A stretch of 64,000 bases of DNA from NCBI GenBank assembly GCA_038040325.1, contig JBBPIM010000004.1:29325-93324 (forward strand), read 5' to 3'. Shown piece after piece: positions 19,768 through 57,238 of the stretch. Numbering within the stretch: the stretch's first letter is position 1; each line of letters opens with the position of its first letter. Origin of the DNA: Candidatus Mayfieldus profundus (GTDB taxonomy: Bacteria > Actinomycetota > Thermoleophilia > Solirubrobacterales > 70-9). The position numbers and the translations under genes were made by a program. The notes below the pieces were generated by a model. That model ran no database searches. It saw only the letters and a program-made list of their open reading frames with translations, and was not told the origin of the DNA.

Positions 19768-22491
19768 CTAGGGCTCGACCACCCGCCAGCGGCGCTTCGC
19801 CGGGGTGGGGTCGGTGTTGCCGGCGGCGTCAGTGGCCTTGACCCTGAACCTGTGCCTGCCGAGGTCGAGGTTTTTGAGCTTCTTCGGCGAGGTGCAGGGC
19901 TTGAACGCCCGCTTGTCGCGCTTGCACTTAAAGGTCGAGCCGGGCTCGTTGGAGCTGAACTTGAACTTCGCCCTGCGTTTGGTTGTCTTCCTGTTCGGGC
20001 CCTGGACGATCTTGGTTCGCGGCGCCGCCGTGTCCCCGCCGCCGAGAGGAATCAGCGTGAAGGTGGCGCTGACGTTGCGGTTGGCGGACATGGTCAGGTT
20101 GCAGGCGCCGACCCCCCCGCAGTCGACGCCCCAGCCGTTGAATGCCGAGCCGCTTCCGGCAGCCGCCGAGAGGCTCACAAGGGTGCCGTGGGCATAGGAC
20201 TCGGTGCAGTCCCCGGGGCAGTTGATCCCGGTGCCGGTCACGGTGCCCCCGCCGGTGCCCGCCGTCGACACCGTCAGCGTCTTGTTCGGTTCCGCGTTGA
20301 AGTTCGCCGTGACCGACTTGTCGGCGGTCATGTTCATCGTGCACTGGCTGCCGCTCGGGTTGTCGCAGGTCGTCCAGTTGGTGAAGCTGGAGCCGAGGCT
20401 GGGACTCGCGGTGAGAACCACGTTCGACCCGTCGGCGTACGTCTCCGTGCAGTCGCCCGGGCAGTTGATCCCCGTCCCGGTCACGGTCCCGCTGCCGGTG
20501 CCGGCCAGGTTTACGGTGAGCGTTCTCAGCGGGCCGGACGGCGGGGTGAGCATGAACAACTCCGCATCTCCACCGCCGGCGGCGCGGTTGTCGGTCCAGG
20601 CCGGGTAGTAGATCCCCTGGGCGACGTCGGAGCCCTCGTAATCCCCGTAGTCGAACCCGTCGCTGTTGGCGCCGCTGTAGTCCGACGCCGCTGTCGTGAA
20701 CTGCTGCATGGACCCGTAGCTGACACCGCCGTTGGTCGAGATCACGTAGTACTGATGCGTCGTCTCGCGAGTGGCATCGGCTTTGGTGCTGTAGAAGCTG
20801 GCCTCGATCGTTCCCGCCGCGGCCGAGGGGTCGGCGGCCAGCGTGGGGAAGAAATGGTCGTTGAGGGCGGTGGCGGTGTCGTCGGTGAGCCTCACGCCGG
20901 TGTTGGCGGCGGGGAAGGTGTTCGCGGCGCCCGCCGCGATGTAGCTGTCGAAGGTCCGGTCGGTCGCGCTCTCGGAGCAGCGAGTGGTGTTGTTGTTGCG
21001 CAACTCGCTCCAGACCACGTAAACGCGCCCGTCCGGGCCCACGTCCACGTAGGTGCTGGCGCTCACCCTGCCCCCTGGTGCGGAGATGATCGAGCAGAAG
21101 AAGGGCAGAGCCGACGCGCTGCCCGGGTCGAGGTCGGTGTCGACGTTCGACTCCTCGTTCCAGTTCGCCTCCACCGTGCAGTTCTCCCCTGCCAGGCATC
21201 GGTTGATCTCGATGTGATCCTGGTTGTAGTCCACCCAGGCCACGTAGACGTCGCCGTTCGGCGCCGCGGCCACCGAGGCGTAGATGTAGCCCCCCGCGGG
21301 ACCGGTGACGTCCACGGGCTCGCTCCAGTTGGTCGGGTTGTCGCAGTTCGACGCCGTGGTGCCGTCGCACTCCGAGATCACGATGTTCTGGCCGGGGTTC
21401 TCGGTCCACACGGCGTAGAGGCGGTAGCGCTTGGGGCTCGACGCCCAGGAGTCCACCCCGATCATGTTCTTGTCCTGCTGGCCGGTGGTGACGCGCCGGA
21501 TCGCGGTGTTCTGGGCGTTGAAGGTCGTGGCGCTGGGGCCCGCTGCCCGGTTGATGATGATGTGACTGCTCGACCCCGTGGTGAGCACCGAGTACCAGAG
21601 ATTTCCGCGGTCGTCGGCGGCGAGGGCCGGGTCGCAACAGAGGCTCAGGTTCTGCGTCCCACCCCCCTCGTCGGGCGGCATCAGCGTGGACGAGGGCAGC
21701 GCGTTGAGCACCTGGGTGCCGGGCTTCATCGAGTTGTTGGAGATCCAAGCCGGGGGGTTCCCGCTGGAGGGATTCGAGGCGGCGATCACGCGCTGCGAGT
21801 TGTCGAACTCGACGGCCGTGTAGACCTCTTGGTTGTCGCCGGAGTTGTTGCTGACGTTGTTGTTGGTCGATGGGCTGGGCAGCGCGCGTTCCCCGGTCGA
21901 GCCTGATGCCGCCGCTGACCCGGCACGCTCAGCGGCCGCCTGCGCTGCGTACTTATCGGGGGGCAGGCGGTTCTGGCCGTAGACGAGCAGCGAAGACCTC
22001 TCGATCACCCGACCCGTCCTGGGATCGACGAGGTCGAGCCGGTAGCGGCCTGGGGGCCGGTTGAGGTCGGAGAGAGTGAGCCTGCGGGACTCGGACCCGT
22101 CGAGTTCGAGCATGCGCGAGGCGAGTCCCACTCGCGTGATGTTGCGCCCGAACCGGGCGCTGTCCGGACGAGCAGGACGGTAGATCCGGACCCGGATCTT
22201 GCGGGTCAGCGCCCTGCTCGGGTCGACCGTGACCCTGACGTCCTGGTCGGGAGCACCGGCGACGATCGCGGTGGGGCTGACTCGCAGGGAACCGAACGGC
22301 AGGGAGTGGCGTGACCGCGGCGGGGGTGCGGTGACCACCGGCTGGATGGGACCGATGGCGCTCCCGGCCTCGGACGATGGCCGGACATCGCGGCCCCCGG
22401 GTTGGGCAGCCACGGCCGAGACGCCGAGCACCGATGCCCCCAGGCAGATCGCCAGGAACCCGCCCAGCCGGCGGCGAGAAATCCCGCTCAC
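19768..22491 (-). CDS. large secreted protein: sialidase/BNR-like beta-propeller region + 2 InlB-B-repeat-like domains + C-terminal Ig-like module
   Basis: 907 aa with signal peptide 'FLAICLGASVLGVSAVAAQP'. Repeated 'VYVAWVD/VYVVWSE/YYPAWTDNR' strands suggest a sialidase-like propeller. Two tandem 'LTV..AGTG.GTVTGTGINCPGDCTE.Y' domains follow, and the C-terminal 'F.FSS.E.GS.F.C..D....C.SP......G.H.F.V.A.D.AGN.DPTP' module is shared with the adjacent protease. Confidence 0.65.
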   Translation of the reverse strand: MSGISRRRLGGFLAICLGASVLGVSAVAAQPGGRDVRPSSEAGSAIGPIQPVVTAPPPRSRHSLPFGSLRVSPTAIVAGAPDQDVRVTVDPSRALTRKIRVRIYRPARPDSARFGRNITRVGLASRMLELDGSESRRLTLSDLNRPPGRYRLDLVDPRTGRVIERSSLLVYGQNRLPPDKYAAQAAAERAGSAAASGSTGERALPSPSTNNNVSNNSGDNQEVYTAVEFDNSQRVIAASNPSSGNPPAWISNNSMKPGTQVLNALPSSTLMPPDEGGGTQNLSLCCDPALAADDRGNLWYSVLTTGSSSHIIINRAAGPSATTFNAQNTAIRRVTTGQQDKNMIGVDSWASSPKRYRLYAVWTENPGQNIVISECDGTTASNCDNPTNWSEPVDVTGPAGGYIYASVAAAPNGDVYVAWVDYNQDHIEINRCLAGENCTVEANWNEESNVDTDLDPGSASALPFFCSIISAPGGRVSASTYVDVGPDGRVYVVWSELRNNNTTRCSESATDRTFDSYIAAGAANTFPAANTGVRLTDDTATALNDHFFPTLAADPSAAAGTIEASFYSTKADATRETTHQYYVISTNGGVSYGSMQQFTTAASDYSGANSDGFDYGDYEGSDVAQGIYYPAWTDNRAAGGGDAELFMLTPPSGPLRTLTVNLAGTGSGTVTGTGINCPGDCTETYADGSNVVLTASPSLGSSFTNWTTCDNPSGSQCTMNMTADKSVTANFNAEPNKTLTVSTAGTGGGTVTGTGINCPGDCTESYAHGTLVSLSAAAGSGSAFNGWGVDCGGVGACNLTMSANRNVSATFTLIPLGGGDTAAPRTKIVQGPNRKTTKRRAKFKFSSNEPGSTFKCKRDKRAFKPCTSPKKLKNLDLGRHRFRVKATDAAGNTDPTPAKRRWRVVEP

Positions 22492-22553
22492 GGTCCCGAG
22501 GTTACCCCTGGTCGTCGGCCGCCGTCAAGACGGGCTGCATACCATGTGTGGCC

Positions 22554-23897
22554 ATGGGGGCGAGGGCGAGACGGTTTGCCATTCTCGCGGCCGCGACAGG
22601 GATGCTGATCCTCACGCCCGCGGTTTCGCTCTCGGGCGCCGCGGCTGACGAGAACGCACGGGCGAACCGGGGGGCCGAGGTGGCGCCCGGCGTCTTCCTC
22701 GCCGGCGTCGAGGCTGCCTCGACACCCACCGGCGCGACCGCCCCGCCCCGGGCCCAAGGCACACGCACCCGCGAGCCGCGCATCGTGGGCGGGACCACGA
22801 CGACGATCGAGGAGTGGCCGTGGCAGGTTGCCGTCGCGGACAACCCCGCGCTGTACAGCGGCAACGGCTTCCAGCGGCAGTTCTGCGGCGGCTCGCTCGT
22901 CGCCCCCACGATCGTCATCACTGCCGCTCATTGCGCGTTTGACGTCTTCGACGGCGGCAACGACTTCGACGATCCGGAGAACTTCTCGGTGATCACGGGT
23001 CGCACGACGCTCTCCAGCAGCCAGGGGCAGGAGATCGACGTCGACAGCATCTGGTTTCCGGCCAACGGGATGGGTCAGCGGCTTTACAACCCCAACACCG
23101 ACGAATGGGACGCGATCGTGCTGGTGCTGGCTTCGCCTTCGAGCTCGGGCACGATCAAGATCGCGGGGGCCGACGAGACGGCGCTGTGGGCCGCGGACAG
23201 CGTGGCGTGGGCCACCGGCTGGGGCACGACATCCTCCGGCGGCTCTAGAAGCGACACCCTGCGCGAGGTCCAGTTCCACATGATCGCCGACTCGACCTGC
23301 GGCTCACCGACCGTCTACGGCTCGGAGTTCAAGGCGCAGACGATGGTCTGCGCCGGCGAGTTAACCGGCGGCAAGGACACCTGCCAGGGCGACAGCGGCG
23401 GGCCGCTCACGGTCCCGATGGCGGGTGGCGGGTTTCGCCTCGTCGGCGACACGAGCTGGGGCTTCGGATGCGCGCTTCCCAACAACCCCGGCGTCTACGG
23501 CCGCCTCGCCGCCGACCCGATGCGAACCGTCTTTCGCAACGCCATTCTCGGCCTGGCCGGCGTCGACGTGGTCGGCTCGGGGGGCACGCCGCCGGCTGTA
23601 CCCTCATCAACGGACACCGACTCCCCCGAGACGACGATCACCAAGCACCCCAAGAAGCACGTCGAAAGCAGCCAGCAGAAGGTCTCGGTCAGGTTCAAGT
23701 TCAGCTCCGACGAGGCGGGCTCGAGCTTCCAGTGCAGGCTCGACCAGCGCCCGCTGCGGTCCTGTTCGGGGCCGAGGGACTACCGGGTCGGGACCCCGGA
23801 CAACCCGCGCAAGCACCTGTTCAAGGTGTTTGCGACCGACCCGGCCGGGAACCGCGACCCGACCCCGGGGAAGTTCAGGTTCAGGGCCTCGAGTTGA
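22554..23897 (+). CDS. secreted trypsin-like serine protease (S1 family) with C-terminal Ig-like module
   Basis: From the ATG at 22554: signal peptide, 'IVGGTTTTIEEWPWQVAV', 'ITAAHC', 'DAIVLVL' and 'CQGDSGGPL' give the His/Asp/Ser triad. The C-terminal module is shared with the divergent 907-aa protein. Confidence 0.88.
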   Translation: MGARARRFAILAAATGMLILTPAVSLSGAAADENARANRGAEVAPGVFLAGVEAASTPTGATAPPRAQGTRTREPRIVGGTTTTIEEWPWQVAVADNPALYSGNGFQRQFCGGSLVAPTIVITAAHCAFDVFDGGNDFDDPENFSVITGRTTLSSSQGQEIDVDSIWFPANGMGQRLYNPNTDEWDAIVLVLASPSSSGTIKIAGADETALWAADSVAWATGWGTTSSGGSRSDTLREVQFHMIADSTCGSPTVYGSEFKAQTMVCAGELTGGKDTCQGDSGGPLTVPMAGGGFRLVGDTSWGFGCALPNNPGVYGRLAADPMRTVFRNAILGLAGVDVVGSGGTPPAVPSSTDTDSPETTITKHPKKHVESSQQKVSVRFKFSSDEAGSSFQCRLDQRPLRSCSGPRDYRVGTPDNPRKHLFKVFATDPAGNRDPTPGKFRFRASS

Positions 23898-25338: not shown

Positions 25339-27027
25339 ATGGAAGCTCAGTCCATTTCAAAAACCGACCAGTCTCTTGACCTCCCCGCTTCCGGGGAGGC
25401 GGTTCCCGCAAACCCGGCGACGTTCGAGTCGGGGCCTCTTGCCGCAGACCTGCCTGAGTCCCCGCAGCGTCAACGCCGGGGACTTGCCTTGCCCAGCGTC
25501 GCCGTCCCTCGCTGGGTGGGCATCGCGGTCGATTACTTCGCTGCCTCGGCCGGGCTGCTCGCGATCACGCTTCTGGGCGGAGGCTCTCTTTCGCCCACGG
25601 CGCTTCTCGCGCCCATGCTGCTGGTCTATTTCAACTGGGCGATCGGCCTCTACGGGCCCTCCCTGGCGGGACGCCAGACGACCGGGCGCCCCCGCACCCC
25701 CCTCGCACTGCTGCTCACCACAGGCATTTTCGCGTGGTGCGCGGGGGTCATCGAAAGCTCGTCCATCGGTGGAGGCAGTCTCGGCGCGGTCGACCAGCTG
25801 GTCCTCTGGGGCGGGGTGTTTGCCTCCGGACTCGCGAACCGAAGCACCGCGGCCGGCGCGGTCAAGCGCGCTGATCCTGAGCGCTGGCTCGTGGTGGGTG
25901 GGATCGGCGGCATCGAGCGGCTCGAGTACGCCCTTCGCGGGGATCGGGACCAAAATCTGGCACGGATCGTCGCTGCGCAGCCGATTCCGTCGAATGGGAC
26001 CGTGCCGCTGGAGCGTCGTTCGGAGGCAATGGCCGCCGTCGAGAGCAGTGACGTGGATCGCGTGGTGCTCGCGCTCGGGGCCGTCGATTCCGGCACCGCA
26101 CTCGAGCTCGTTCACACCTTCAAGGCGCTCGGTGTTCCGGTCAGCCTGCTCGAGCCGCCGCCGGATCTGACCGAAGGCCTGCCGCTCGCGGAGAGGCGGG
26201 TCGGACAGCTGCCGGTTGTCGACGTCGGACAGCTCACCCGTAACGGGCACGCCTCGCAGAACGGACACGCCGCCACCAACGGAAATGCCGCCATGAACGG
26301 ACACGCCGCCACCAACGGACACACCGCCACCAACTGGCACGCCGCTCGAAACGGCTGGAGGCCGCGCGTGAGCGTGATCATCCCGGCGCTCAACGAGGAG
26401 GAGAACCTGCCCCATGTCCTCGAGCGGCTCCCGGCACGCCTGCACGAAGTGATCCTGGTCGACGGCAGCTCCAACGACCAGACGGTGGAGGTCGCGATCA
26501 GGGAGCGACCCGGGATCCGTGTCCTCGCCCAGTCCGGACGCGGCAAGGGCGACGCCCTGCAGACGGGCTTCGCCGCGGTGACCGGAGACGTCATCGTCAC
26601 CCTCGACGCCGACGGGTCTGCCGACCCGGCGGAGATCCCGCGCTTCGTCGAAACCCTCATGGCCGGGTCGGACTTCGCCAAGGGGTCCCGTTTCGTGGGT
26701 GACGGGGGAAGCGACGACATCACAGCGATCCGCCAGCTGGGCAACTGGGCGCTGAACACGACCGCAAACGCGCTCTACGGAACCCGCCACAGCGACCTCT
26801 GCTACGGCTACAACGCCTTCTGGACCCGTTGCCTTCCCTACATCTCGCTCGACGTCACGGGATTCGAGGTCGAGACTCTGATGACCCTGCGATCCGCAAA
26901 GGCGGGACTGAAGGTCAGCGAGGTGCCGAGCTACGAGGCCAAGCGCCTGCACGGAAAGAGCAACCTGAAGATCTGGCGGGACGGCTTCCGGGTGCTGAGG
27001 ACGATCATCAGGGAGCGCCAAGCGTAG
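25339..27027 (+). CDS. membrane protein: phosphoglycosyltransferase-type N-terminal TM + Rossmann-like module fused to DPM1-like GT2 domain
   Basis: 562 aa. About 4 hydrophobic helices are followed by 'RWLVVGGIGGIERLEYAL....DRVVLAL....LGVPVSLL', which resembles a WbaP/EpsB N-terminal region. An (NGHAAT)n linker comes next, then the GT2 core 'VSVIIPALNEEENL..VILVDGSSNDQT', 'TLDADGS' and 'EVPSYEAKRLHGKSNL'. The start is uncertain because there is no good SD. Confidence 0.7.
   Translation: MEAQSISKTDQSLDLPASGEAVPANPATFESGPLAADLPESPQRQRRGLALPSVAVPRWVGIAVDYFAASAGLLAITLLGGGSLSPTALLAPMLLVYFNWAIGLYGPSLAGRQTTGRPRTPLALLLTTGIFAWCAGVIESSSIGGGSLGAVDQLVLWGGVFASGLANRSTAAGAVKRADPERWLVVGGIGGIERLEYALRGDRDQNLARIVAAQPIPSNGTVPLERRSEAMAAVESSDVDRVVLALGAVDSGTALELVHTFKALGVPVSLLEPPPDLTEGLPLAERRVGQLPVVDVGQLTRNGHASQNGHAATNGNAAMNGHAATNGHTATNWHAARNGWRPRVSVIIPALNEEENLPHVLERLPARLHEVILVDGSSNDQTVEVAIRERPGIRVLAQSGRGKGDALQTGFAAVTGDVIVTLDADGSADPAEIPRFVETLMAGSDFAKGSRFVGDGGSDDITAIRQLGNWALNTTANALYGTRHSDLCYGYNAFWTRCLPYISLDVTGFEVETLMTLRSAKAGLKVSEVPSYEAKRLHGKSNLKIWRDGFRVLRTIIRERQA
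26242..26349 (+). repeat. six tandem 18-bp units encoding (N-G-H-A-A/S-T/Q)n interdomain linker
   Basis: The units aacgggcacgcctcgcag / aacggacacgccgccacc / aacggaaatgccgccatg / aacggacacgccgccacc / aacggacacaccgccacc / aactggcacgccgctcga are read directly from the sequence. Confidence 0.9.
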
Positions 27028-27817
27028 CTTCGCCTCGCAGCTTTCGGATCACGCAGACGACCCAGCCAGCCCCTTCGTCTTTGTCGTTGGACTCCAACCT
27101 GCAGTGGGTCTCAGCCCGGCCGGCAAGCGTCTCGGTCAAGTCGGACTCGTATCCCGGTCGCCAGATCACGAACCGGCCGTCTCGCTCGTCGAAGTTCCAC
27201 TGGTGGAGCTGGACGTAGGCCTGGTTGACCGCCTCGTTGCGCACATGCCGCAGGACCACATACCCCTCCGGACGCACGACGCCGAGCATGTTTTCGATGA
27301 TCAGCACCGGATCAACGGCGTGATCGAGCGCATTTCGCGAGTAGGCGATGTCGAATCGGTCGGGCCCGAAGCGCTGCAACAGCCGCTCTCCCTCCGCCCG
27401 CTCTGTGCGGGCCGGGGGGTCGATGCCTCGTTTAGCCAGCAGGCGTCCGTACTGATCGGCCAGAGGATCCACCGGGGTCAGAGACAGCGTCTTGCCAGGG
27501 AACCGGTAGCCCACCCCTGACACCGGGCCCGCGCCGACGTCAAGGATCGAGACCTGCTTCTGCGCAAGGCTCGCCAGGACCTCGCAAAGGGCCGGGTCGG
27601 CAACCTCCGCGTTCGGGTCGAGGCGATAGCTGTAGTCGTTCGCCCACTTGCCACCCTGGTTCGACAGCCAATCCCGCCAGTAATCGACCTCTTCTCGTAG
27701 CGCACGCCTGCGGGCGCGGACTGGGTCGCTACGGGTCCGCCATCCCTGCTCACCCCGACGACCGAAGCCGCGAGCAAGGCGGCCGGCGATCGCACGAAAA
27801 TCCCGCATTCGACCCAC
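27008..27817 (-). CDS. class I SAM-dependent methyltransferase
   Basis: 269 aa with motif I 'ILDVGAGPVSGVG' and later 'FDIAYSRNALDH' and 'RPEGYVVLRH'. Its 3' end overlaps the upstream convergent gene by 20 bp. Confidence 0.7.
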   Translation of the reverse strand: MGRMRDFRAIAGRLARGFGRRGEQGWRTRSDPVRARRRALREEVDYWRDWLSNQGGKWANDYSYRLDPNAEVADPALCEVLASLAQKQVSILDVGAGPVSGVGYRFPGKTLSLTPVDPLADQYGRLLAKRGIDPPARTERAEGERLLQRFGPDRFDIAYSRNALDHAVDPVLIIENMLGVVRPEGYVVLRHVRNEAVNQAYVQLHQWNFDERDGRFVIWRPGYESDLTETLAGRAETHCRLESNDKDEGAGWVVCVIRKLRGEATLGAP

Positions 27818-27838: not shown

Positions 27839-29716
27839 GTGACCGCGCTGATCGCCAGGGAGGTGGCCAGGGATACGGTCGCCTTGGAGGCAGACCGGTC
27901 GGCGCCCGGCTCGCGGATCGGCCAGGTTCCGCTGATCGCGTTTCTCGCGGGGATCGGCCTGCTGGTCTGCTCGGTTGCCGACGCCTTGGCGCGCGCCACG
28001 CTGGCGCCGTCACCGCTGATCTATTGGGCCGGCATTCTCATCATCGGCCTGCCGATCTTCTATCGGCTCCTCTCCAGGGAGGCATCCCCCGGTGAACGGC
28101 TCGCGCTCGTCTGCGTTCTCGCTATGGCCCTTTATGGGGTCAAGCTGGCGCAGGAGCCATTCCTGTTCACGTTCCCGGACGAGTTCACCCACAGCTACAA
28201 CGCCAACCAGATCGAGCTGCATCACCATCTCTTCCATCCCAATTCGCTGCTGGTGGTGAGCCCGTACTACCCAGGGCTCGAAGGAGCAACCTCGGCGTTG
28301 ATGATGTTGACAGGGATGTCCAGCTACGTTGCGGGAATCATCGTCGTCGGGGCCGCTCGGCTGACCCTCGTGATCGCGCTGTTCCTGCTGTTTGGGCGTA
28401 TCAGCGGCTCCGCCCGTATTGCGGGGATCGGCGTCGCGATATATGCCGGAAACCCCAATTTCATGTTCTTCGGCGCCCAGTACTCCTACGGTTCCCTTGC
28501 CCTTCCGCTGCTCGTGGTCCTCCTGATGGCCCTCGCCGAACGCGATGCCTTCCCTCGATCGTGGTCCTGGGCCTGGTCGGTGCCGATCGTGCTCGGAACG
28601 GCGGCCCTCGTGGTGACCCACCACCTGACCTCCTACGCACTAACAGGGATCTTGCTCACCCTGGCGCTCGCGCACGTGCTTGTCCACCGACGGGTGGAAT
28701 GGCGAAATCCATTGCCGTTCGCAATCCTGGCCGGAGGGTTGAGCGCGATCTGGCTCCTCGTGGTTGCCAGCGCAACCCTGAGCTACCTCGAGGCGCCGTT
28801 GGCAAGGGCGATCAGGGAGACCTGGAACACGATCACAGGTGATACAGGCACACGCGATTTGTTCCAGTCCGGGGGCTCCAGCTCCGGTACGAGGGTCCCG
28901 GTTTCCACCCCCGTGGTGGCCCAAATCTTCGCGTTTGCCTCCGTGGTCATCCTGCTCATCGGCCTTCCCCTCGGCCTCTGGCAGGTGTGGCGACGTCATC
29001 GAACCAAGGCTTTTGCCCTGATGTTCTCGCTGGCGGCCATCGGGTTCTTCGGCGTGCTCGGACTCCGGTTCGCCCCGGCTGCGTGGGAGGCCGGCAACCG
29101 CGCGGCCGAATACCTGTTCCTCGGGCTCGCGTTCGTAGTCGCGCTGGCGATCGTATCCGTGTATTCACTCCTGGAGGGCCGGAGGGTCCGGCTCGGCCGC
29201 GGGCTGCTCACGGCGTGCCTAGGGGTCTTGCTGACGGGGGGAGCGATCAGCGGCTGGCCCTGGGATCAGCATCTCGCTCAGCCGATCACCGCCACCTCAG
29301 ATGGGCGCCGCTTCGAGTCCGAGCCGCTCGGAATGGCTCGTTGGGCGCGAGGCCACTTCCCCGGTCAGAAGTTCGCGGCTACCGAGATCGACGCTCGTCT
29401 TCTCATCGATCCCGGGGGAGCCAGGGTGTATTCCGGGTATACCCTCGAAGTCCAGGACATCCTGGACGCGACCAAGCTCGAGCCGTGGCACACGGCGGAC
29501 CTACGGCGCAACAAGACCCGCTACGTGGTCGCCGATCGCCGGCGGACAAGCAGGGATCTCATCAGGGGTTACTTCCTCTCGCTGCTGCCGCCGGCAGGAA
29601 AGCGGTACCGCCCGCTGCCGAGGGGAACGACGGCCAAGTTCGAGCAGATCCCCACTGCGGCCCGCATGTTCGACAGCGGCAACATCGTCGTCTTCGACAT
29701 CGAGGCCGGCCGATGA
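27839..29716 (+). CDS. large polytopic membrane protein, GT-C-like / candidate glycan polymerase or transferase (uncharacterised)
   Basis: 625 aa with a GTG start and at least 10 hydrophobic helices. An early loop reads 'FTFPDEFTHSYNANQI' (acidic DE motif), and a soluble C-terminal domain of about 170 aa follows. The family is not identified. Confidence 0.55.
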   Translation: MTALIAREVARDTVALEADRSAPGSRIGQVPLIAFLAGIGLLVCSVADALARATLAPSPLIYWAGILIIGLPIFYRLLSREASPGERLALVCVLAMALYGVKLAQEPFLFTFPDEFTHSYNANQIELHHHLFHPNSLLVVSPYYPGLEGATSALMMLTGMSSYVAGIIVVGAARLTLVIALFLLFGRISGSARIAGIGVAIYAGNPNFMFFGAQYSYGSLALPLLVVLLMALAERDAFPRSWSWAWSVPIVLGTAALVVTHHLTSYALTGILLTLALAHVLVHRRVEWRNPLPFAILAGGLSAIWLLVVASATLSYLEAPLARAIRETWNTITGDTGTRDLFQSGGSSSGTRVPVSTPVVAQIFAFASVVILLIGLPLGLWQVWRRHRTKAFALMFSLAAIGFFGVLGLRFAPAAWEAGNRAAEYLFLGLAFVVALAIVSVYSLLEGRRVRLGRGLLTACLGVLLTGGAISGWPWDQHLAQPITATSDGRRFESEPLGMARWARGHFPGQKFAATEIDARLLIDPGGARVYSGYTLEVQDILDATKLEPWHTADLRRNKTRYVVADRRRTSRDLIRGYFLSLLPPAGKRYRPLPRGTTAKFEQIPTAARMFDSGNIVVFDIEAGR

Positions 29717-30498
29717 GGGGTCACCAGGATCTCGCTGTGGCGGCGGCGGCGGCCGTCACCTGCGCGCTGTTTGCGCTCTTGGTCCCGTTCGAGTTGGTCC
29801 GGTTGGCCGTCGCAGTGCCTCTGGCCCTTCTCTTGCCTGGGTATGCCATCTCCGCTGCCGCGTTCGGGCCACGGCCACCCGGGCCGGTGCGGCTGCTGGC
29901 GCTGAGCCTCGGTTTGAGCCTGATAACGCTTGTGCTCGGCACCCTGGTGTTGAACTACGCGCCCGGGGGTTTGCGCGCCGGAAGCTGGGCAGCGCTGCTC
30001 GTCCTGGTCGTGCTCGTCGGCTGCGTGGTGGCGGCGGTGCGGCGGGGAGAGGCCCCGAGTGGTCGATTCCGTTGGCCGCGGCCCCGGCTAACTCGCTCGG
30101 AGGGGGGGCTGCTGCTGGGAGCAGCACTCGCCTTCGCCGCGGCCGGGGTGATCTCCTCGACGGCGCTGCCAGCAAAGAATGCGGAGGGGTACACACGACT
30201 CTGGATGTTGCCGGCCAGCGGTGCCGAGGCGTCAGGCGTACGCGTCGGTGTCATCAACCAGGAGCACGACACCGTGGCTTATAGGCTCGAGGTGCAGCTG
30301 GGCCACCGCCGCAATCCCGTTGTGAGGCGTTTTTTCCTACAGCCCGGCCAGAAGCGAAGGGTGCAGATACCGGTCGGGGGCCTACCCACGCCGGCCAAGC
30401 CCGTCCCCGTCACGGCGTTGCTCTTCCGGCGCGCCGATCCCGATACGGCATACCGGCGGGTGACGGGCTGGACTCGGGGAGCCCGCGCGACCCCATGA
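29713..30498 (+). CDS. DUF1616-like membrane protein
   Basis: From the ATG at 29713 (ATGA overlap with the upstream stop), 261 aa. The N-terminal helices carry 'PLALLLPGYAISAAAF' and 'ALSLGLSLITLVLGTLVLNY'. The C-terminal beta-rich 'YTRLWMLP...VRVGVINQEHDTVAYRLEVQL' matches my recollection of the mainly archaeal DUF1616 family. Confidence 0.5.
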   Translation: MRGHQDLAVAAAAAVTCALFALLVPFELVRLAVAVPLALLLPGYAISAAAFGPRPPGPVRLLALSLGLSLITLVLGTLVLNYAPGGLRAGSWAALLVLVVLVGCVVAAVRRGEAPSGRFRWPRPRLTRSEGGLLLGAALAFAAAGVISSTALPAKNAEGYTRLWMLPASGAEASGVRVGVINQEHDTVAYRLEVQLGHRRNPVVRRFFLQPGQKRRVQIPVGGLPTPAKPVPVTALLFRRADPDTAYRRVTGWTRGARATP

Positions 30499-31601
30499 GC
30501 CCGCGGCGCGGTTCCGACCTTGCGGTTGACATCGTGATCAGCAACTACAACTACGGGTCCTTTTTGATCGATGCCGTCGAGAGCGCCTGCCGGCAGACCT
30601 ACCCCAACGTCAACGTGGTCGTCGTCGACGACGGCTCGACCGACGATTCGCGCGAAAGGTTGCGCGACTACGAGGACCGGGTTGAGATCGTGTCGAAGGA
30701 GAACGGAGGGCAAGCCTCCGCGCTCAACGCCGGGCTAGCGCGATGTCACGGCGATCTGGTGATGTTCCTCGATGCCGACGACGTGCTGCGTCCGTGGGCC
30801 GCGGGACGTGTCGCCGAAGAGTTCTCGACCGACCCCAACCTGGCGAGGGTTCAGTTCCGAATGGCCTTCGTCGACGCGACGGGGCATCCAACGGGGCAGA
30901 CCGAACCGAGCGAGCATCAACGCGCGCCGACCGGCGATCTGCGCCATGCCGAGTTGGCCTTTCCCTTCGACCTCCCCTGGATCGCGGGGGGAGGCACCGC
31001 GTTTCGCACCGAGCCTCTGCGAACGATCTTCCCAATCCCCGAGCGAGACTATCCCCGCTGCGGAGCCGATTGGTACGTTGTTCACTTGATGGCACTGCTC
31101 GGCGAGGCGGGATATGTCGACGAGGTGTGCGCCGATTACCGCCTTCACGGGCGCAACGGGTACGCGCGGCAGGACCAACAGCTCGACCTCCAGCAGGTCC
31201 GCCACAGCATCGCCTACTCAGCCCCTACGAAGGCAGCGCTGGCACGGCTTGCGGATCAGGTCGGTCTCGAGCGTCCCGAGCGAATACTCTCGATGTCGGA
31301 CCTCGCAAATCGCCTAATTTCGCTCAGGCTCGAGCCTCAAACCCATCCGATCCGCGACGACAACGTCTTCGGCCTGCTCGCCGATTCGGTGCGCGCTGCC
31401 CGGCGCCGTTTCGACGTCTCCTGGCCAATGAAGGTGGTGTTCGTGGGCTGGTTCGTGGCAGTGGCGGTCTCCCCGCGCCCGCTCGTCCGCCGGCTCGGCG
31501 AGCTGCTCTGGTTCCCCACCGCGCGGCGCGGATGGATCAACCGGCTGCTGGGGCGGCTTCGCCGCGAGAGCGTCGGCAGAGCCCCGGCAAGGAGTGCTTG
31601 A
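30495..31601 (+). CDS. glycosyltransferase family 2
   Basis: 368 aa with 'DIVISNYNYGSFLIDAVESACRQTYPNVNVVVVDDGSTDDS', 'GGQASALNAG' and 'FLDADD'. ATGA overlap with the upstream gene. Confidence 0.8.
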   Translation: MSPRRGSDLAVDIVISNYNYGSFLIDAVESACRQTYPNVNVVVVDDGSTDDSRERLRDYEDRVEIVSKENGGQASALNAGLARCHGDLVMFLDADDVLRPWAAGRVAEEFSTDPNLARVQFRMAFVDATGHPTGQTEPSEHQRAPTGDLRHAELAFPFDLPWIAGGGTAFRTEPLRTIFPIPERDYPRCGADWYVVHLMALLGEAGYVDEVCADYRLHGRNGYARQDQQLDLQQVRHSIAYSAPTKAALARLADQVGLERPERILSMSDLANRLISLRLEPQTHPIRDDNVFGLLADSVRAARRRFDVSWPMKVVFVGWFVAVAVSPRPLVRRLGELLWFPTARRGWINRLLGRLRRESVGRAPARSA

Positions 31602-45045: not shown

Positions 45046-46302
45046 TCACCCCGGCAGCCGCCAGTTATGCGGCAGGACGACGTCGCCGTCCGAGCCGCTG
45101 GCCGGCATCGGGCGGTCGGCCATTACCCCGGGCTCGACATCGAAGAACGCGGCCGCCTGCAGGCCGTCTTGGACCCTCCTGTTGGCCTTCAGCAGGACAT
45201 CGATGCGGTATCGGCCGGGCAGGAGCGGCAGGGATGCGATGTCGCATTCGATGCAGGGCCCGAGCTCGCCGTCGCGGATGTCGGTCGGAGCCGACACCTC
45301 GCTGTCGAGCGTCATGATCGGCTGCCCCAGGTTGTTACAGATGGTGAGCCGGCACTCCATCATCGGCACGACCTCGGTGACGTGCACGACGATCGTCACC
45401 GGGCGGCCCCCGACGACCACATCGGGGGTGCCCCCGCTTGCGTCGCGGATCTCCAGCCGCCGCACGAGGCTCTCCTCATAGCCGCGGCTGTCGCGATCCG
45501 TTCGCTCGAGCAGGTCGTTGGAGGCGGCACGCTCGAGGGTTCGCAGGTAGCGGTCGATCGTCTCCATCACAGGCGCGTCGGCCACCGCCTCGCCGCGCTC
45601 GAGCAACACGCCGCGGTGGCAGAGCGCCTGGATGATGGCGAGGTTGTGCGAGACGAAAATGACGGTCCTTCCCTCCTTTGCCACCTCACCCATCTTGCCG
45701 AGCGACTTACGCTGGAAGGCGGCGTCGCCCACAGCCAGGACCTCGTCGACGAGCAGGATCTCCGGCTCGAGGTGAGCCGCCACAGCGAACGCAAGCCGCA
45801 CCGCCTCGCCGCTGGAGTACCGCTTGACCGGCGTGTCGAGGAAGCGCTCCATTTCGGCGAACGCGACGATCTCGTCGAATCGGCGCCGGATCTCGGCGCG
45901 CCTCATGCCCAGAATGGCGCCGTTGAGGAAGATGTTCTCGCGTCCGGTGAGCTCGGGATGAAAGCCGGTCCCGACCTCGAGCAGCGAGCCGACCCGCCCG
46001 GTCACGTCGGCGTATCCGGAGGTCGGCTCGGTGATCCGCGAGAGGATCTTCAGCAGCGTGGTCTTGCCGGCGCCGTTGTGACCGATCAGGCCGACGACCT
46101 CGCCGGTGCGAACCGTGAGCGAGAGGTCGTGGAGTGCCCAGAGAGTGTTCCTCGATGGCCGTGAGGGGCGCCGCCCGACCCTCCGCAGCGCCCCGCGGGC
46201 GGCCTGCACCATCGCCTCGCGCAGGGTGTCGTAGCCGTGGCCGTGTAGGCCGAGGGTGTAGCGCTTGCCCAGCTCGTGTGTCGTTATCACGACGTCGCTC
46301 AT
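45046..46302 (-). CDS. wzt: polysaccharide ABC exporter ATP-binding protein with C-terminal Wzt_C-like beta-sandwich domain
   Basis: From the ATG at 46302 (418 aa): Walker A 'GHNGAGKTTLLK', the TagH/Wzt-type 'LLEVGTGFHPELTGRENI', signature 'YSSGE' and Walker B 'LLVDEVL'. About 170 extra C-terminal residues include 'LPLLPGRYRIDVLL' and 'FFDVEPG'. Confidence 0.85.
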   Translation of the reverse strand: MSDVVITTHELGKRYTLGLHGHGYDTLREAMVQAARGALRRVGRRPSRPSRNTLWALHDLSLTVRTGEVVGLIGHNGAGKTTLLKILSRITEPTSGYADVTGRVGSLLEVGTGFHPELTGRENIFLNGAILGMRRAEIRRRFDEIVAFAEMERFLDTPVKRYSSGEAVRLAFAVAAHLEPEILLVDEVLAVGDAAFQRKSLGKMGEVAKEGRTVIFVSHNLAIIQALCHRGVLLERGEAVADAPVMETIDRYLRTLERAASNDLLERTDRDSRGYEESLVRRLEIRDASGGTPDVVVGGRPVTIVVHVTEVVPMMECRLTICNNLGQPIMTLDSEVSAPTDIRDGELGPCIECDIASLPLLPGRYRIDVLLKANRRVQDGLQAAAFFDVEPGVMADRPMPASGSDGDVVLPHNWRLPG

Positions 46303-46307
46303 GGGGT

Positions 46308-47195
46308 TCAGACGAGGTCCGCGAAGCCTCGCTCGACACGGTCGAAGTACGCGAGCCCGGCCAACAGAAGGATCACCGCCGATGCCGCCGAGATGGCGAT
46401 CAGGGCCAAAGGCGCTGTCGCCGTGTCGAGCGTCGCCCACCGGAAGCCCTCCACGACGCCCACCATCGGGTTGATGGCGGAAAGCGTCCGCCACGGCTCG
46501 TCGAGAAGAGTGCTCGAATATGCCACTGGGGTCGCGAACAGCCACATCTGGATCGCGAACGGCACGACGTAGCGCACGTCCCGGTAGCGGACGTTGATCG
46601 CCGACAGCGCGGCGCTGACGCCGAGAGCGGCCGCCACGGCGATCGCTATCAGCAGCGGCAGCGTCAGCACGGCCGCGGAAGGCACCACTCCCCAGGCGAG
46701 CACGATGACGAACAGGATGACGAGCGAGACGCCGATGTCGACGAGGCCCGCGGCGACCACGCCGGCGGGCAGGAAGATGCGCGGAAAGTAGATCTTGGAG
46801 ACCAGCGCGGCGTTGGCCACGAGGCTGTCCGATCCGAGCAGCAGCGCGTTGGCGAAGAACGTCCACGGGACGAGAGCCGCGAGGCTGAACAGCGGATACG
46901 GCAGGCCCTCGGATGACAGTCCCGCCAGGTTGCCGAAGATGACCGAGAAGACGACCATGAACCCCACCGGCTGCAGCACGACCCAGAGTGCCCCGAGCGC
47001 GGTCTGGCGGTAGCGCACGGTGACATCGCGCGCGGCGATCTGCAGCGCGAGGTCGCGGTAGCGCCACAGCTCCCGCGGGGACAGCACACGGCTGAAGCCG
47101 CGCGTCGGCTGCAGCCGGATCGTCTCAGGGGTCGCCGGTGCCTCTGCTGCGGCCGCGCCGGCGGCCTCAGGGCCGGATTGGGTCAGCTGCTCCAC
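46308..47195 (-). CDS. wzm: polysaccharide ABC exporter permease (ABC-2 type)
   Basis: 'RELWRYRDLALQIAARDVTVRYRQTALGALWVVLQP', 'KIYFPR' and 'RYRDVRYVVPFAIQMWLFATPVAY' are ABC-2/Wzm signatures. Start placed at GTG 47195, 22 nt after the upstream stop. Confidence 0.8.
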   Translation of the reverse strand: MEQLTQSGPEAAGAAAAEAPATPETIRLQPTRGFSRVLSPRELWRYRDLALQIAARDVTVRYRQTALGALWVVLQPVGFMVVFSVIFGNLAGLSSEGLPYPLFSLAALVPWTFFANALLLGSDSLVANAALVSKIYFPRIFLPAGVVAAGLVDIGVSLVILFVIVLAWGVVPSAAVLTLPLLIAIAVAAALGVSAALSAINVRYRDVRYVVPFAIQMWLFATPVAYSSTLLDEPWRTLSAINPMVGVVEGFRWATLDTATAPLALIAISAASAVILLLAGLAYFDRVERGFADLV

Positions 47196-47217
47196 GATCT
47201 GGAGGATAGGTCGTGCG

Positions 47218-48888
47218 TCAGAACCTGCCGGCGCGCCACAGCACCTGGTCTCGCCCGCGCGCGCTCCACAGCTCCACGGTGCCCGTCTCGGGGTGTTCGC
47301 GCGGCCAGGAGCGCCCACTCAGGAAGTACCGGGACGGCGGGGGTTCGTGCGCACCCCGGAACAAGCGCACCGACGTTTGCGGCAGGAACCACTGATAGGC
47401 ATAAAGGCCGATCGCGTCGTAGTGGTCAGTGTCATAGCCCAGCGAACGTATGCCGTGGGCCTCGGCCACGGGCTCGGGGCTCGTCCACCCGCTGGGATAG
47501 ACGTCCCGTTCGGAGCGCAGGACCGGATTCCAGGCGCCGTACACGACGACCGGGAGGAACAGGGCGAGCGCGACCGCCCCGAGGTATCGAGGCGCGCGGA
47601 CCGACGCGACGCTGATCAGCCACACGCCTGCGCCGGCCACGAGCGCGGCGCCGATCAGGATCGCGGAACCCAGCTGGGCCGTGACGAAGGGCAGGCCGGA
47701 TATGTTGAATCGGTTGGGATCGCCCGAGTCGGAAGCAGTGACGCCGATGAGCACGATTGCGGCGCTGAACAGGGCGAGCGCGAGCAGCGGCCGAAAGATT
47801 CTCAGGGGAAACTTTCGCCCCGCCAGCATCGCCAATCCGAGGGCTACAAGCACGGGGGTCACCACCTCGACGTAGCGGCCGTAGATGAGCATGTCCGGCC
47901 GGGTGCGGACCGGGAACGACCCGGCCGAGACGAGTAGCAGCAGCACGGTGAGCACGACGAGGATCGGGGTCACCGGGGGCAGCTGCTCCCGATCTTCCTC
48001 CGCGCCGAGACCGCCCGCACGCGCGACCACCCTGGCGAACACCACCGCGGCCAATCCGAAAGTCGAGACGACGAGGTACCAGGCCTGTCCGAGGAGGTTC
48101 GCCGCGGCAGTCAGCGGGCCGTGGCCGCCCCAGAACGAGCTCAGCCGATCATTGGCTTCGTTCGGGGCTGAGCCGCCGTAGTTGTGATCGATCAGGTACG
48201 TGTTGAGCAGATGCGTGCCCAATATGCCCGCGGCGAGCACGACCAGCACCGCGGCGACCGCCGCGGGCGGCAGGCGGCGGCGCACCCCGAGCCACGCGAC
48301 CAGCACAGCGGTGAGGACGACCGCCGTCACCATCCGGCCGTGCACTGTCCAGAGCGCGGCGGTGGACGCCCCGAGTCCCATCCCCCAAAGCAGGCTGCCC
48401 CGTGGATCGCGGGCGGCGAGCAGCCCGCCGAATGCGATCAGCCAGACACAGGCGAGCGGGAACAGCGCGTTCTCGGACATCGCCACCTGCGACAGAACGG
48501 TCACCGCGGGATACGCGGCGCCGGCCAGCGCCGCCCATAACGCAGTACGGGCCTCGACGCCGGCATAGCGAGTCAGCAGCACGTACAGCAGCGGGAACAC
48601 CGAAGCAGCGAGGGCCGCGTTGAGAACCAGCACGAGGTGGTAGACCAGGCTCGGGTCCGAGCTCAGGTCGAGGAAGGGCGAGAACAGCAGCGAGTAGCCG
48701 CCCCTGTAGAACGGCGCGTTCTGGAGCTGGCCCTCGAGCCCGCCGGTCAGCACGCGAGCGTTGGTCAGGTATCCGATCTCGTCCGCGACGAGAAGCGGAC
48801 CGGATCGAGCCACGGAGAGAATCAGCCGCGCAGCGAACAGGGCGAGCGTTCCCGCGATCAGTCGATTGCGCACCCATCCCTGAGCCAA
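47218..48888 (-). CDS. GT-C-fold-like polytopic membrane glycosyltransferase (ArnT/PMT-like architecture)
   Basis: 556 aa with at least 12 hydrophobic helices. The first-loop motif 'LLVADEIGYLTNARVL' is the acidic DE motif typical of GT-C enzymes, and a soluble tail of about 110 aa follows. The subfamily is not assignable by eye. Confidence 0.6.
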   Translation of the reverse strand: MAQGWVRNRLIAGTLALFAARLILSVARSGPLLVADEIGYLTNARVLTGGLEGQLQNAPFYRGGYSLLFSPFLDLSSDPSLVYHLVLVLNAALAASVFPLLYVLLTRYAGVEARTALWAALAGAAYPAVTVLSQVAMSENALFPLACVWLIAFGGLLAARDPRGSLLWGMGLGASTAALWTVHGRMVTAVVLTAVLVAWLGVRRRLPPAAVAAVLVVLAAGILGTHLLNTYLIDHNYGGSAPNEANDRLSSFWGGHGPLTAAANLLGQAWYLVVSTFGLAAVVFARVVARAGGLGAEEDREQLPPVTPILVVLTVLLLLVSAGSFPVRTRPDMLIYGRYVEVVTPVLVALGLAMLAGRKFPLRIFRPLLALALFSAAIVLIGVTASDSGDPNRFNISGLPFVTAQLGSAILIGAALVAGAGVWLISVASVRAPRYLGAVALALFLPVVVYGAWNPVLRSERDVYPSGWTSPEPVAEAHGIRSLGYDTDHYDAIGLYAYQWFLPQTSVRLFRGAHEPPPSRYFLSGRSWPREHPETGTVELWSARGRDQVLWRAGRF

Positions 48889-54891: not shown

Positions 54892-55845
54892 ATGTCACGC
54901 CCGTTCTTCACCGTCCTCGTCACAACCTACGACCGCGCCCAGATCGTGCGGCGCTGTGTTGACAGCTGCCTCGGCCAGACCTTCTCCGACTACGAGGTCG
55001 TCGTAGTCGATGACGGTTCGACCGACGACACCTTCTCGATCCTGGAGCGCATCGATGATCCTCGCCTGCGTGTCGTCGCCCATGAGTCAAACCGCGGAAT
55101 CGACCCCTCGCGGCACACCGGTGTCGCCAACTCGCGCGGGGAGTGGATAGTCCACATCGACAGCGACGACGAGTTGTTCCCCTACACGCTCGAGCGCCTG
55201 CGCGAGTTCATCGATGCTCTCCCGGATGGTGTGCGGGTCCTGCGTACCCGGCTGCTCTGGGACGACGGTCGCATCACCCCTGCTTTCGTCCCAACGGGAC
55301 CGATCGATTACGAAGGTCGACTCCGAGCCTGGGAGGCGGACCGGTCGGATGCCGGGAACTGCTGGCATCGTTCCGTATTCGACCTCAATCCGTATTTCAG
55401 GGATCGCCGCGGCGCGATGGAAGCGCTGCGGGAGTTGAACATGTCGAGAGTCGAGACCACCATGTACGTCCCGGACGTTCTCGCCAAGGTGCACACCGAC
55501 GCTCCAAACAGCTGGGCGCGCGGCGCCGACGCGTCCGAGGTCATCCCGCGGCTGTTGCGCGAGGCGCCCGACATGCTGTGGATGATGGAGACGACGATCG
55601 ACGAGCACGGTGCCGCGCTGGCTCAACATGCCCCCCGGACATATCGGCTCTTCCTGCGTGGGGCGTCAACGCAGGCGTTTCTGCTCGGCGACCGCAGGAA
55701 GGGATTCCGCTACGGACTTGCGGCCTTGCGGCTCGGCAGGCTCGATGCATTGGCCTGGGGAACCCTTGCGCTGGGGTTGCTTGGCCCGTGGGCGGTGGTT
55801 CGGGGCACGGTGGCGCACCGCCGGCTGAATCGCTTGAGGCCCTAG
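54892..55845 (+). CDS. glycosyltransferase family 2 (module A)
   Basis: 317 aa with 'FFTVLVTTYDRAQIVRRCVDSCLGQTFSDYEVVVVDDGSTDDT' and 'HIDSDDELFP'. Close paralog of 58039..59001. Confidence 0.8.
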   Translation: MSRPFFTVLVTTYDRAQIVRRCVDSCLGQTFSDYEVVVVDDGSTDDTFSILERIDDPRLRVVAHESNRGIDPSRHTGVANSRGEWIVHIDSDDELFPYTLERLREFIDALPDGVRVLRTRLLWDDGRITPAFVPTGPIDYEGRLRAWEADRSDAGNCWHRSVFDLNPYFRDRRGAMEALRELNMSRVETTMYVPDVLAKVHTDAPNSWARGADASEVIPRLLREAPDMLWMMETTIDEHGAALAQHAPRTYRLFLRGASTQAFLLGDRRKGFRYGLAALRLGRLDALAWGTLALGLLGPWAVVRGTVAHRRLNRLRP

Positions 55846-57161: not shown

Positions 57162-57238
57162 TCCGCTATCGCCCGCGCTGTGGAAGATCAGGCCCCACCG
57201 GCTCGACTTCGACCCGCGCCAAGGGTTTCCTCTGCCAC

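Follow-up and report, generated by a model that had tools for sequence, protein, structure and literature searches.

A polytopic membrane protein with a predicted GT-C fold and its DUF1616 neighbour form a conserved gene pair in a glycan locus of Solirubrobacterales

This work concerns two overlapping genes in a 64,000-nucleotide stretch of contig JBBPIM010000004.1 of Candidatus Mayfieldus profundus (Solirubrobacterales), a stretch that is hereafter called the window. The first gene encodes a polytopic membrane protein of 625 amino acids (protein A) and the second a protein of 261 amino acids that belongs to the DUF1616 family (protein B). We consider it probable that A is the catalytic subunit of an extracytoplasmic glycosyltransferase of the GT-C class and that B is its non-catalytic partner, i.e. 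that the two proteins make up a two-subunit module. A functional link between A and B is supported by four kinds of evidence that are independent of one another: the adjacency of the genes, the overlap of their reading frames, their co-occurrence at distant loci and the existence of natural fusion proteins. The genes of the conserved block are the following:

27839..29716, + strand: open reading frame A, GTG start, 625 amino acids
29713..30498, + strand: open reading frame B, ATG start, 261 amino acids
29713-29716, + strand: ATGA, overlap of the A stop and the B start codon, translational coupling
30495..31601, + strand: Leloir-type family 2 glycosyltransferase (GT2), Pfam GT2 match with E = 1.5e-29, third gene of the block

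An earlier note on this DNA, written from the sequence alone, had placed both reading frames and the ATGA at 29713-29716 and had quoted three peptides of the proteins. The reading frames and the ATGA are exactly where that note put them, and the three peptides are all present: 'FPDEFTH' corresponds to residues 112-118 of A, and LLLPGYAISAAAF and VGVINQEHDTVAYRLEV correspond to residues 39-51 and 178-194 of B, respectively. A GAGG motif resembling a Shine-Dalgarno sequence is found 8-11 nucleotides 5' of the overlap. There is also a second ATGA overlap, absent from the earlier note, which joins B to the downstream GT2 gene at 30495-30498. In other words, A, B and the GT2 are three genes in one translational chain. 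At third codon positions the G+C content (GC) of A is 0.82 and that of B 0.79 when each is read in its own frame, compared with 0.50-0.73 in the other frames; since such an excess is expected in a window with 69% GC, both look like real genes. The public annotation of A (P0001) has 576 amino acids and starts at a TTG at 27986. This start is probably too downstream, because it cuts off the conserved first transmembrane helix, in which residue G40 is invariant among 49 homologues. The true start should lie within 27839-27884 (GTG, GTG or TTG).

The linkage of the two genes was investigated in relatives of A found by scanning a genome collection. The scan found 151 relatives and returned the best 80 loci; together with the related locus L001, these make 81 loci. 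The best 80 are all from metagenome-assembled genomes (MAGs), assigned to Solirubrobacterales or other Actinomycetota, with one labelled Syntrophothermus; the closest relatives of the window itself are Solirubrobacterales MAGs. A DUF1616 gene lies directly downstream of A in 81/81 loci, and a GT2 gene lies downstream of B in 69 of the 81. Moreover, the overlap of 4 nucleotides between the A stop and the B start (ATGA, GTGA or TTGA) is found in every locus in which B could be aligned from its first residues (72/72).

Five of the most distant DUF1616 matches were chosen for a separate test and their contigs were read. These proteins have 33-39% identity to B, and the GC of their loci is 52-68%. 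An A-family gene is present within approximately 1 kb in all five (hmmsearch E-values 1e-96 to 1e-163, hhalign E-values 1e-72 to 1e-119). It is directly upstream of B in four of them; in the fifth (L089) the two genes are on opposite strands, with a methyltransferase gene between them. Because A is inverted relative to B in L089, the linkage evidently survives rearrangement. The surroundings of the distant loci differ from those of the window, i.e. there are sulfotransferases and a Wzx flippase in place of Wzm/Wzt. In two of these loci a Wzx/Polysacc_synt flippase is located directly 3' of B, and no recognisable Wzy polymerase was found in those two. These data support a co-occurrence of A and B that is conserved beyond mere inheritance of gene order. 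The earlier note had stated that its suggestion would fall if B had no significant DUF1616 match or if the two genes did not co-occur in other genomes; the match is significant (see below) and the co-occurrence is conserved, as is seen in the 81 loci, in the five distant loci and in the fusions.

Fusions of A with DUF1616 were found in six of the 150 best representatives of the A family. In five of them the C terminus of A is followed by a linker of 30-50 amino acids and then by a 'PLxxxLPG[YF]' helix which corresponds to the second transmembrane (TM) helix of B, so that TM1 is lost; the B part aligns over hhalign columns 30-262 with E = 1.8e-24. The sixth has two extra TM helices inserted at the junction. 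Either change, the loss of one helix or the gain of two, keeps the orientation of B when the external C terminus of A is joined to an N terminus that is otherwise inside. The junctions are thus remodelled in a way that preserves topology, which suggests that the fusions are genuine and not frameshift artefacts, and which at the same time provides an independent confirmation of the orientation of B. Further fusions of the types GT2-A, GT4-A and GT2-GT4-A tie A to glycan assembly.

Profile searches of Pfam and NCBIfam gave no match for A, and no match was found among the sequences of PDB, either with the single sequence or with the family profile. Among metagenome clusters formed at 50% identity, the A family comprises 2510 representatives when E <= 1e-3 is required and 1453 when E <= 1e-30 is required. 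When 70 diverse relatives of A were compared with known models, weak matches were obtained to DUF6541 (8), PMT_2 (2), Mannosyl_trans4 (1) and DUF2206 (1). The DUF6541 (PF20176) matches, obtained in several close homologues and, at E <= 0.01, in 8/70 relatives, span approximately positions 40-545. Part of them score below the gathering threshold of 29 bits, and two homologues (P0009 and P0061) pass it with 35.6 and 39.9 bits. The A family resembles DUF6541 in this respect, but the A protein of the window itself does not match the model even at E <= 10. It therefore appears, from sequence, to be a sister or an outlier of the DUF6541 family, distantly related to it. The earlier note had been unable to place A in a known family, which agrees with these searches.

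The AlphaFold (AF2) model of A has a mean predicted local distance difference test score (pLDDT) of 75.5 and a predicted template modelling (TM) score of 0.72, and contains 13 membrane helices followed by an alpha/beta domain at residues 480-625. The many helices and the C-terminal soluble domain that the earlier note had described are thus present in the model. In a Foldseek search of PDB with this model, ranks 1-19 were occupied exclusively by GT-C enzymes (STT3, AftA, PglB, AglB, AftD, ArnT and ALG9; the STT3 identity of the chains from oligosaccharyltransferase (OST) entries was inferred from chain length and entry). The E-values of these matches range from 4e-6 to 4e-2 with TM-scores up to 0.51, and the matches past rank 19 are noise, with TM-scores of about 0.1. 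Together with the invariant D114 in the extracytoplasmic 'FPDEFTH' loop, this bears out the GT-C-like layout proposed for the 625-residue protein. By its predicted fold and active-site geometry A is a GT-C protein, and one that stands outside every characterised family.

The conserved residues of A are consistent with this assignment. D114, H261, H262, W305, R410, R421 and G614 are invariant among sequences of 30-40% identity, and E115, H118, N135, P145-G146, R174, Y202, Y217, S219, E417, D566, R568, K600 and D612 are near-invariant in the family; E115 and H118 are conserved in at least 90% (70-91 sequences of 30-40% identity). The topology model places 13 helices in the membrane and the N terminus inside, in agreement with the positive-inside rule (K+R: 12 inside, 5 outside). 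According to this model, each family-conserved residue belongs to an external loop, to the outer half of the membrane or to the C-terminal domain. The loop of residues 106-161, which holds D114, is predicted to be outside. A thus shows a feature typical of GT-C enzymes, a long extracytoplasmic loop that opens with a conserved acidic residue, and 'FPDEFTH' would mark the canonical catalytic loop of the class. Owing to two additional helices at the N terminus of A, this loop follows the third TM helix and not the first.

The similarity to STT3 does not go beyond the general layout. A shares 13 TM helices and a C-terminal extracytoplasmic domain with STT3, but this combination is common to other GT-C families as well, and neither A nor any of its 70 relatives matches PF02516 (STT3). 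A 'GWPWD' peptide at residues 472-476, right after the last TM helix, was considered as a counterpart of the WWDYG motif and rejected: it is not conserved across the A family, being kept in the close subfamily only, with GWPPxxRLP in the wider family. With neither the PF02516 signal nor the WWDYG motif, A is, on sequence criteria, not of the STT3 type. As a separate observation, a subgroup of A homologues (P0330, P0343, P0350, P0361, P0364, P0374 and L082 7527-9971) has a C-terminal extension of about 130-170 amino acids. The extensions of P0330 and P0361 (~165 amino acids) were compared with DUF1616 as candidate cryptic domains of that family and were rejected.

Protein B matches the Pfam DUF1616 model (PF07760) over residues 9-200 with 62 bits (E = 7e-17; gathering cut-off 31.6), and the model is also matched by all 60 aligned relatives of B, so the family membership proposed in the earlier note holds. 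The AlphaFold model of B, built from 60 sequences, has a pLDDT of 88.9. It shows five TM helices (5-23, 27-51, 58-82, 89-111 and 128-149) with the N terminus inside, followed by a seven-strand immunoglobulin (Ig)-like beta sandwich at residues 161-254. Foldseek found no solved protein with the whole architecture of B; the sandwich alone matched Ig-like and fibronectin type III-like accessory domains of glycoside hydrolases of families GH2 and GH3 and of dextranase, with TM-scores <= 0.28 over about 105-145 columns. No solved structure was matched by sequence, either with the single sequence or with the profile. The sandwich is taken to face outwards because the positive-inside rule fits, because the fusion topology agrees, and because HVO_2173, a homologue from Haloferax, carries N-glycosylation in the corresponding 'GVGNQE' strand (PMC8241124). 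The most conserved residues of B include the intramembrane positions P36, P42, G43, Y44, S69 and W92, and no conserved charged residue was found in the helices of the family alignment. Comparison of B with the GtrA, SMR/EamA and MATE families in Pfam gave no similarity even at E <= 1. B lacks a conserved sequon: at the N of 'VINQE' the family has S or N, and no S/T comes after it. The profiles of A and B have no mutual similarity. A showed no homology to B, nor to any of the window's other three unassigned polytopic proteins. We also note that residues 37-150 of B (window ~29821-30162, TM2-TM5) correspond to a region in which 7/60 B-type proteins (e.g. P0156, P0176 and P0211) match model positions 2-115 of DUF6541 below threshold, with 22-27 bits. 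These matches are either noise due to hydrophobic composition, or else DUF6541 has a DUF1616-like N-terminal bundle.

DUF1616 had been described in the earlier note as a mainly archaeal family. Membership of B in the family stands, as said above, but archaeal members occur in another context. The comparison of archaeal neighbourhoods consists of one readable locus and the literature; the loci were found on metagenome contigs by a back-translated degenerate DNA pattern derived from an HVO_2173 peptide, which gave two short Haloferax-like loci (L086 and L087). The Haloferax-like DUF1616 protein has 335 amino acids, scores 415 bits in Pfam and aligns to the B family with an hhalign E-value of 1.8e-22. 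The gene order (L087 1229-6214, L086 11-1689) is a DUF58 protein, a 746-residue secreted DUF4129 protein, DUF1616 (the HVO_2173 orthologue) and RdfA (rod-determining factor A), and no A-like gene or glycosyltransferase was found in the 7 kb read. In the literature the archaeal neighbourhood of DUF1616 is MoxR/vWA/DUF58, for which a function in secretion or in membrane remodelling is predicted, and arCOG02884 is described as a membrane bundle that bears an Ig-like domain outside the cell (PMC5898192). B has this layout, with its five TM helices and its seven-strand sandwich. The MoxR ATPase, vWA/DUF58 and DUF4350 neighbourhood (the arCOG01314 system) was not found in the window or in the related bacterial loci, which show glycosyltransferases instead. 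In archaeal and bacterial proteins alike, the TM bundle includes the 'PLxxxLPGYA' helix, the Ig-like sandwich is external and a 'GV.N.E' strand occurs, but the archaeal ones are longer and have a MoxR/vWA/DUF58/DUF4129 context, whereas the bacterial B-type proteins have approximately 255-265 amino acids and are tied to the A family. The pairing of A and B is therefore a trait of the bacterial B-type clade and not of DUF1616 as a whole.

The genes that are needed for a discussion of the mechanism are a candidate donor synthase upstream of A and an ATP-binding cassette (ABC) exporter downstream of the block:

25339..27027, + strand: candidate donor synthase, GT2 resembling polyprenyl-phosphate-sugar synthases, Pfam GT2 at residues 345-492
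27008-27817, - strand: methyltransferase, between the synthase and A
45046-46302, - strand: Wzt, ATPase of the ABC exporter, Pfam ABC_tran and Wzt_C
46308-47318, - strand: Wzm, ABC exporter, Pfam ABC2_membrane

The best NCBIfam matches of the synthase are AglJ (E = 7e-42) and a dolichyl-phosphate (Dol-P)-hexose transferase, and positions 33-247 of TIGR03025 match its residues 87-298; all of these matches are below the equivalog cut-offs. Its best sequence matches in PDB are Dol-P-Man synthase (5mlz, E = 6e-18), ArnC (~1e-12) and GtrB (5ekp). An orthologue is present within the locus (10 kb) in 46 of the 81 related loci. The synthase is an unusual fusion of a WbaP-like N-terminal membrane region with a GT2 catalytic domain like those of dolichyl-phosphate mannose synthase (DPMS), ArnC and GtrB; the halves are joined by a His/Asn-rich linker of near-repeats, 'NGHA..NGHAATNGNAAMNGHAATNGHTATN', at residues ~300-335. 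The methyltransferase has no homologue at this position in any of the related loci (0/81), so it looks like a lineage-specific insertion. In the window it leaves no more than 21-66 nucleotides before the A start.

In the mechanism that we propose, the polymer would be assembled in the cytoplasm and then exported, here probably by Wzm/Wzt, which would bring it in lipid-linked form to the outer face and within reach of A. The upstream DPMS/ArnC-like GT2 would load polyprenyl phosphate with a sugar, and the donor would most probably be a polyprenyl-phosphate hexose. The use of a lipid-phosphate donor by A is suggested by the adjacent DPMS/ArnC-like synthase and by the outward position of the conserved residues. 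The active site of A, i.e. the D114/E115/H118 loop, H261/H262, R410/E417/R421 and the conserved C-terminal domain, would face outwards, and A would move the sugar from the polyprenyl-phosphate donor onto the exported glycan or another acceptor. The helical bundle of B would pack against A in the membrane, B being made stoichiometrically with A, and its Ig-like domain would most plausibly hold or position the acceptor polymer, or else stabilise A. Catalysis by A, the contact between A and B, the donor, the acceptor and the role of the Ig-like domain are what we infer from the folds, topology, conservation, linkage and fusions computed here.

Several observations weigh against this two-subunit reading. 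A has no kinship to any characterised GT-C enzyme that is detectable by sequence, its TM-scores of 0.4-0.5 indicate a common fold class and not a close match, and its catalytic loop (residues 107-146) is modelled with pLDDT < 50. Physical contact between A and B is deduced from genetics and fusions only. Most of the co-occurrence data come from one order, Solirubrobacterales, so the counts are inflated by shared ancestry. The synthase is found within 10 kb of A in only 46/81 loci, and no dedicated donor flippase was seen in the window, which leaves the role of a flippase open for B. Finally, the other context of the archaeal DUF1616 proteins means that the family has no intrinsic link to GT-C enzymes.

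The flippase question leads to the alternative that the locus encodes a three-component system in which the GT2 makes the polyprenyl-phosphate sugar, B flips it and A transfers the sugar outside. A synthase and a GT-C protein are both present, the known paradigm needs a flipping component (PMC11127046), and B is the only small polytopic protein in the conserved block; no GtrA- or SMR-like reading frame was found in the window, where B is the only small multi-TM one, and the two unassigned polytopic proteins of 473 and 446 residues lie further downstream. The conserved residues inside the membrane, listed above, would also suit such a function. We regard this alternative as unlikely, nevertheless, given that B lacks similarity to the GtrA, SMR/EamA and MATE families and has no conserved intrahelical charge, that flipping has no use for a conserved Ig-like domain outside, and that TM1 is dispensable in the fusions. 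The archaeal homologues occur in neighbourhoods unrelated to glycosylation (PMC5898192), and the two distant loci with Wzx/Polysacc_synt directly 3' of B already have a flippase. Another possibility is that A acts on a whole polyprenyl-diphosphate-linked chain, either as an en-bloc transferase like OST or a ligase or as a polymerase like Emb or MptA, with protein, lipid or the growing polymer as acceptor and with B as a partner that handles the chain. In eukaryotic OST there are non-catalytic subunits with luminal beta-sandwich domains, the best structural matches of A are STT3 subunits of OSTs with the same 13-TM and C-terminal domain layout (common as this is), and the two distant loci just mentioned consist of A, B and a Wzx-type flippase with no recognisable Wzy. 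A role of this kind is, to our judgement, quite unlikely: A lacks any STT3 signal in Pfam or PDB sequences and has 'GWPWD' and not WWDYG, Foldseek returned no folds of the WaaL, RodA or Wzy type, the pathway of the window depends on an ABC transporter, so that polymerisation would be cytoplasmic, and the conserved neighbour is a synthase of monosaccharide lipids. The earlier note had offered two descriptions of the pair, polymerase with co-polymerase or transferase with accessory protein. The second is favoured by our data; the first is less supported, as A resembles STT3, Aft enzymes and ArnT and not Wzy or WaaL. Proteins of the Wzz type have two TM helices and a periplasmic coiled coil. B is unlike them, with five TM helices and a sandwich; no Pfam match to Wzy_C or Wzz was obtained and neither WaaL nor RodA appeared in Foldseek, and a Wzy/Wzz pair was rejected on fold.

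Two further explanations appear very improbable to us. Genes for a glycosylating enzyme and its substrate are often adjacent, as in the case of TfpW and PilA, and B could accordingly be a dedicated glycoprotein substrate of A, in the manner of the pilins that are found beside GT-C glycosylases. It fits this idea that HVO_2173 is glycosylated at four sites, including the conserved strand of the sandwich (PMC8241124). A covalent fusion that preserves topology is, however, not expected of an enzyme and its substrate, the family has no conserved sequon, and the start/stop overlap in 72/72 loci suggests stoichiometric assembly. One may also suppose that there is no functional link at all, the gene order being simply inherited within one clade and the fusions being artefacts of assembly or gene calling. 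The data are all metagenomic, 80 of the 81 A loci come from MAGs of Solirubrobacterales or other Actinomycetota, and a single indel could turn an overlap of 4 nucleotides into a fusion. What makes this explanation so hard to hold is that the linkage persists in five loci at 33-39% B identity which have another GC and other neighbours, one of them with an inversion, and that the junctions of the fusions show the loss of TM1 or the gain of two TM helices together with linkers of 30-50 amino acids, which an indel cannot yield.

If A and B are taken as a catalytic subunit and its partner, the pair can be compared with known systems. A resembles STT3/PglB/AglB (GT66), AftA (GT85), AftD and ArnT (GT83) in its predicted fold, with about 13 TM helices and the N terminus inside. 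It shares with these solved enzymes of the GT-C(A) class an acidic residue opening a long external loop in which there are two short helices. It also shares with them Arg, His and Tyr residues that are conserved near the outer leaflet, where the lipid-phosphate site is predicted, and an additional C-terminal extracytoplasmic domain. It differs from them in having no sequence similarity, in the position of the catalytic loop after the third TM helix, in the lack of WWDYG, and in its small alpha/beta C-terminal domain with conserved residues of its own (D566, R568, K600 and D612). A further difference is its obligate linkage to a separate membrane protein, B; to our knowledge, no dedicated partner has been reported for the bacterial or archaeal STT3-type, AftA, AftD and ArnT enzymes. 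The concept of a GT-C protein that works with an accessory protein, anchored in the membrane and equipped with a beta-rich domain outside, is known from eukaryotic OST (ribophorins, OST48/Wbp1) and from TfpW/TfpX of P. aeruginosa. No OST subunit was among the Foldseek matches of B, and no homology was detected.

At the level of the locus, the nearest parallels are the GtrA/B/C, ArnC/E-F/T, CsbB/GtcA/YfhO and GT136 systems, in which the genes of a synthase and a GT-C enzyme likewise lie in a glycan cluster and the polymer is exported separately (Kelly et al. 2024, PMC11127046). Three-component extracytoplasmic glycosylation consists of a synthase, a flippase and a GT-C enzyme, and in GT136 and the Emb enzymes the GT-C protein is assisted by a carbohydrate-binding beta domain (PMC11127046). 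The flippase of such systems is of the GtrA, SMR or MATE type, whereas the third conserved component here is DUF1616, and the synthase here is distinguished by its WbaP-like N-terminal membrane module. Emb, AftD and GT136 carry fused carbohydrate-binding modules; here the sandwich is on a separate protein with five TM helices and is fused to the enzyme in some lineages only.

GT-C enzymes build and decorate envelope glycans outside the membrane, in arabinogalactan, lipoarabinomannan, lipid A modification and protein glycosylation, and those of bacteria are generally treated as single-subunit enzymes. That an extracytoplasmic GT-C enzyme acts on a lipid-linked donor is known already; what is new is the A family and its obligate DUF1616 partner. 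A literature search found no paper on DUF6541, and for DUF1616 only archaeal comparative-genomics predictions and a glycoproteomics entry; nothing that links DUF1616 to a GT-C enzyme was found in the searchable literature. A wider proposal can be put forward tentatively, with rather more doubt than confidence: B-type DUF1616 proteins might be integral non-catalytic subunits of a widespread, so far unrecognised heteromeric family of bacterial GT-C enzymes, in parallel to the multi-subunit OST of eukaryotes, in which case the Ig-like membrane protein would derive, by recruitment, from an ancestral module of the archaeal type that served the envelope or secretion. If so, this would be the first function for DUF1616, and A would represent a new GT-C family at the level of CAZy. 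Should A and B indeed form a complex, they would clearly exemplify a bacterial GT-C enzyme with an accessory subunit that is obligate. Bacterial DUF1616 would then have a role that can be tested, it would become apparent how a membrane protein of the Ig-like type, known in the envelope systems of archaea, was re-used, and a way would be opened to the envelope glycobiology of Solirubrobacterales, which are abundant and barely cultured soil Actinomycetota. The natural fusions of A and B are ready-made constructs for structural work.

The gene pair lies in a glycan locus that extends from approximately 25 kb to at least 63 kb of the window. The locus contains a SARP/BTAD regulator, more than 15 glycosyltransferase genes, an APH-like kinase, Wzt/Wzm, three other polytopic proteins and three glycoside hydrolases of family GH26. 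The GT2 that follows B (30495..31601) has chondroitin synthase and GalT1 as its best PDB matches. Many further GT2 and GT4 genes are present, two of them fused to deacetylase domains, and an ABC ATPase with Wzt_C is also found in the related locus L001. The remaining features referred to here, two of them upstream of the locus, are listed below:

19768-22491, - strand: secreted protein of 907 amino acids with InlB B-repeat domains
22377-23897, + strand: trypsin-like protease
47218-48888, - strand: polytopic protein of 556 amino acids, no Pfam match, no similarity to A
52343-53737, + strand: GH26 (mannanase-type), first of three paralogues
55842-57263, - strand: polytopic protein of 473 amino acids, no Pfam match, no similarity to A
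58998-60338, - strand: polytopic protein of 446 amino acids, no Pfam match, no similarity to A
60429-61583, + strand: GH26, second paralogue
61673-62767, + strand: GH26, third paralogue

The three polytopic proteins have 11-12 hydrophobic segments each, and in the one with 556 residues the first helix is followed by a GT-C-like 'VADEIGYL' motif. All three are possible additional components of the glycan locus, of the GT-C, Wzy-like or flippase kind. A GH26 gene also occurs in the related locus L090, and the presence of GH26 genes in the glycan locus hints at a mannan-like polymer. The secreted InlB-repeat protein and the trypsin-like protease have in common a C-terminal module of about 65 amino acids with the pattern 'KFKFSS..GS.F.C..D....C..P.....G.H.F.V.A.D.AGN.DPTP', which may serve both proteins as a domain for sorting or anchoring.

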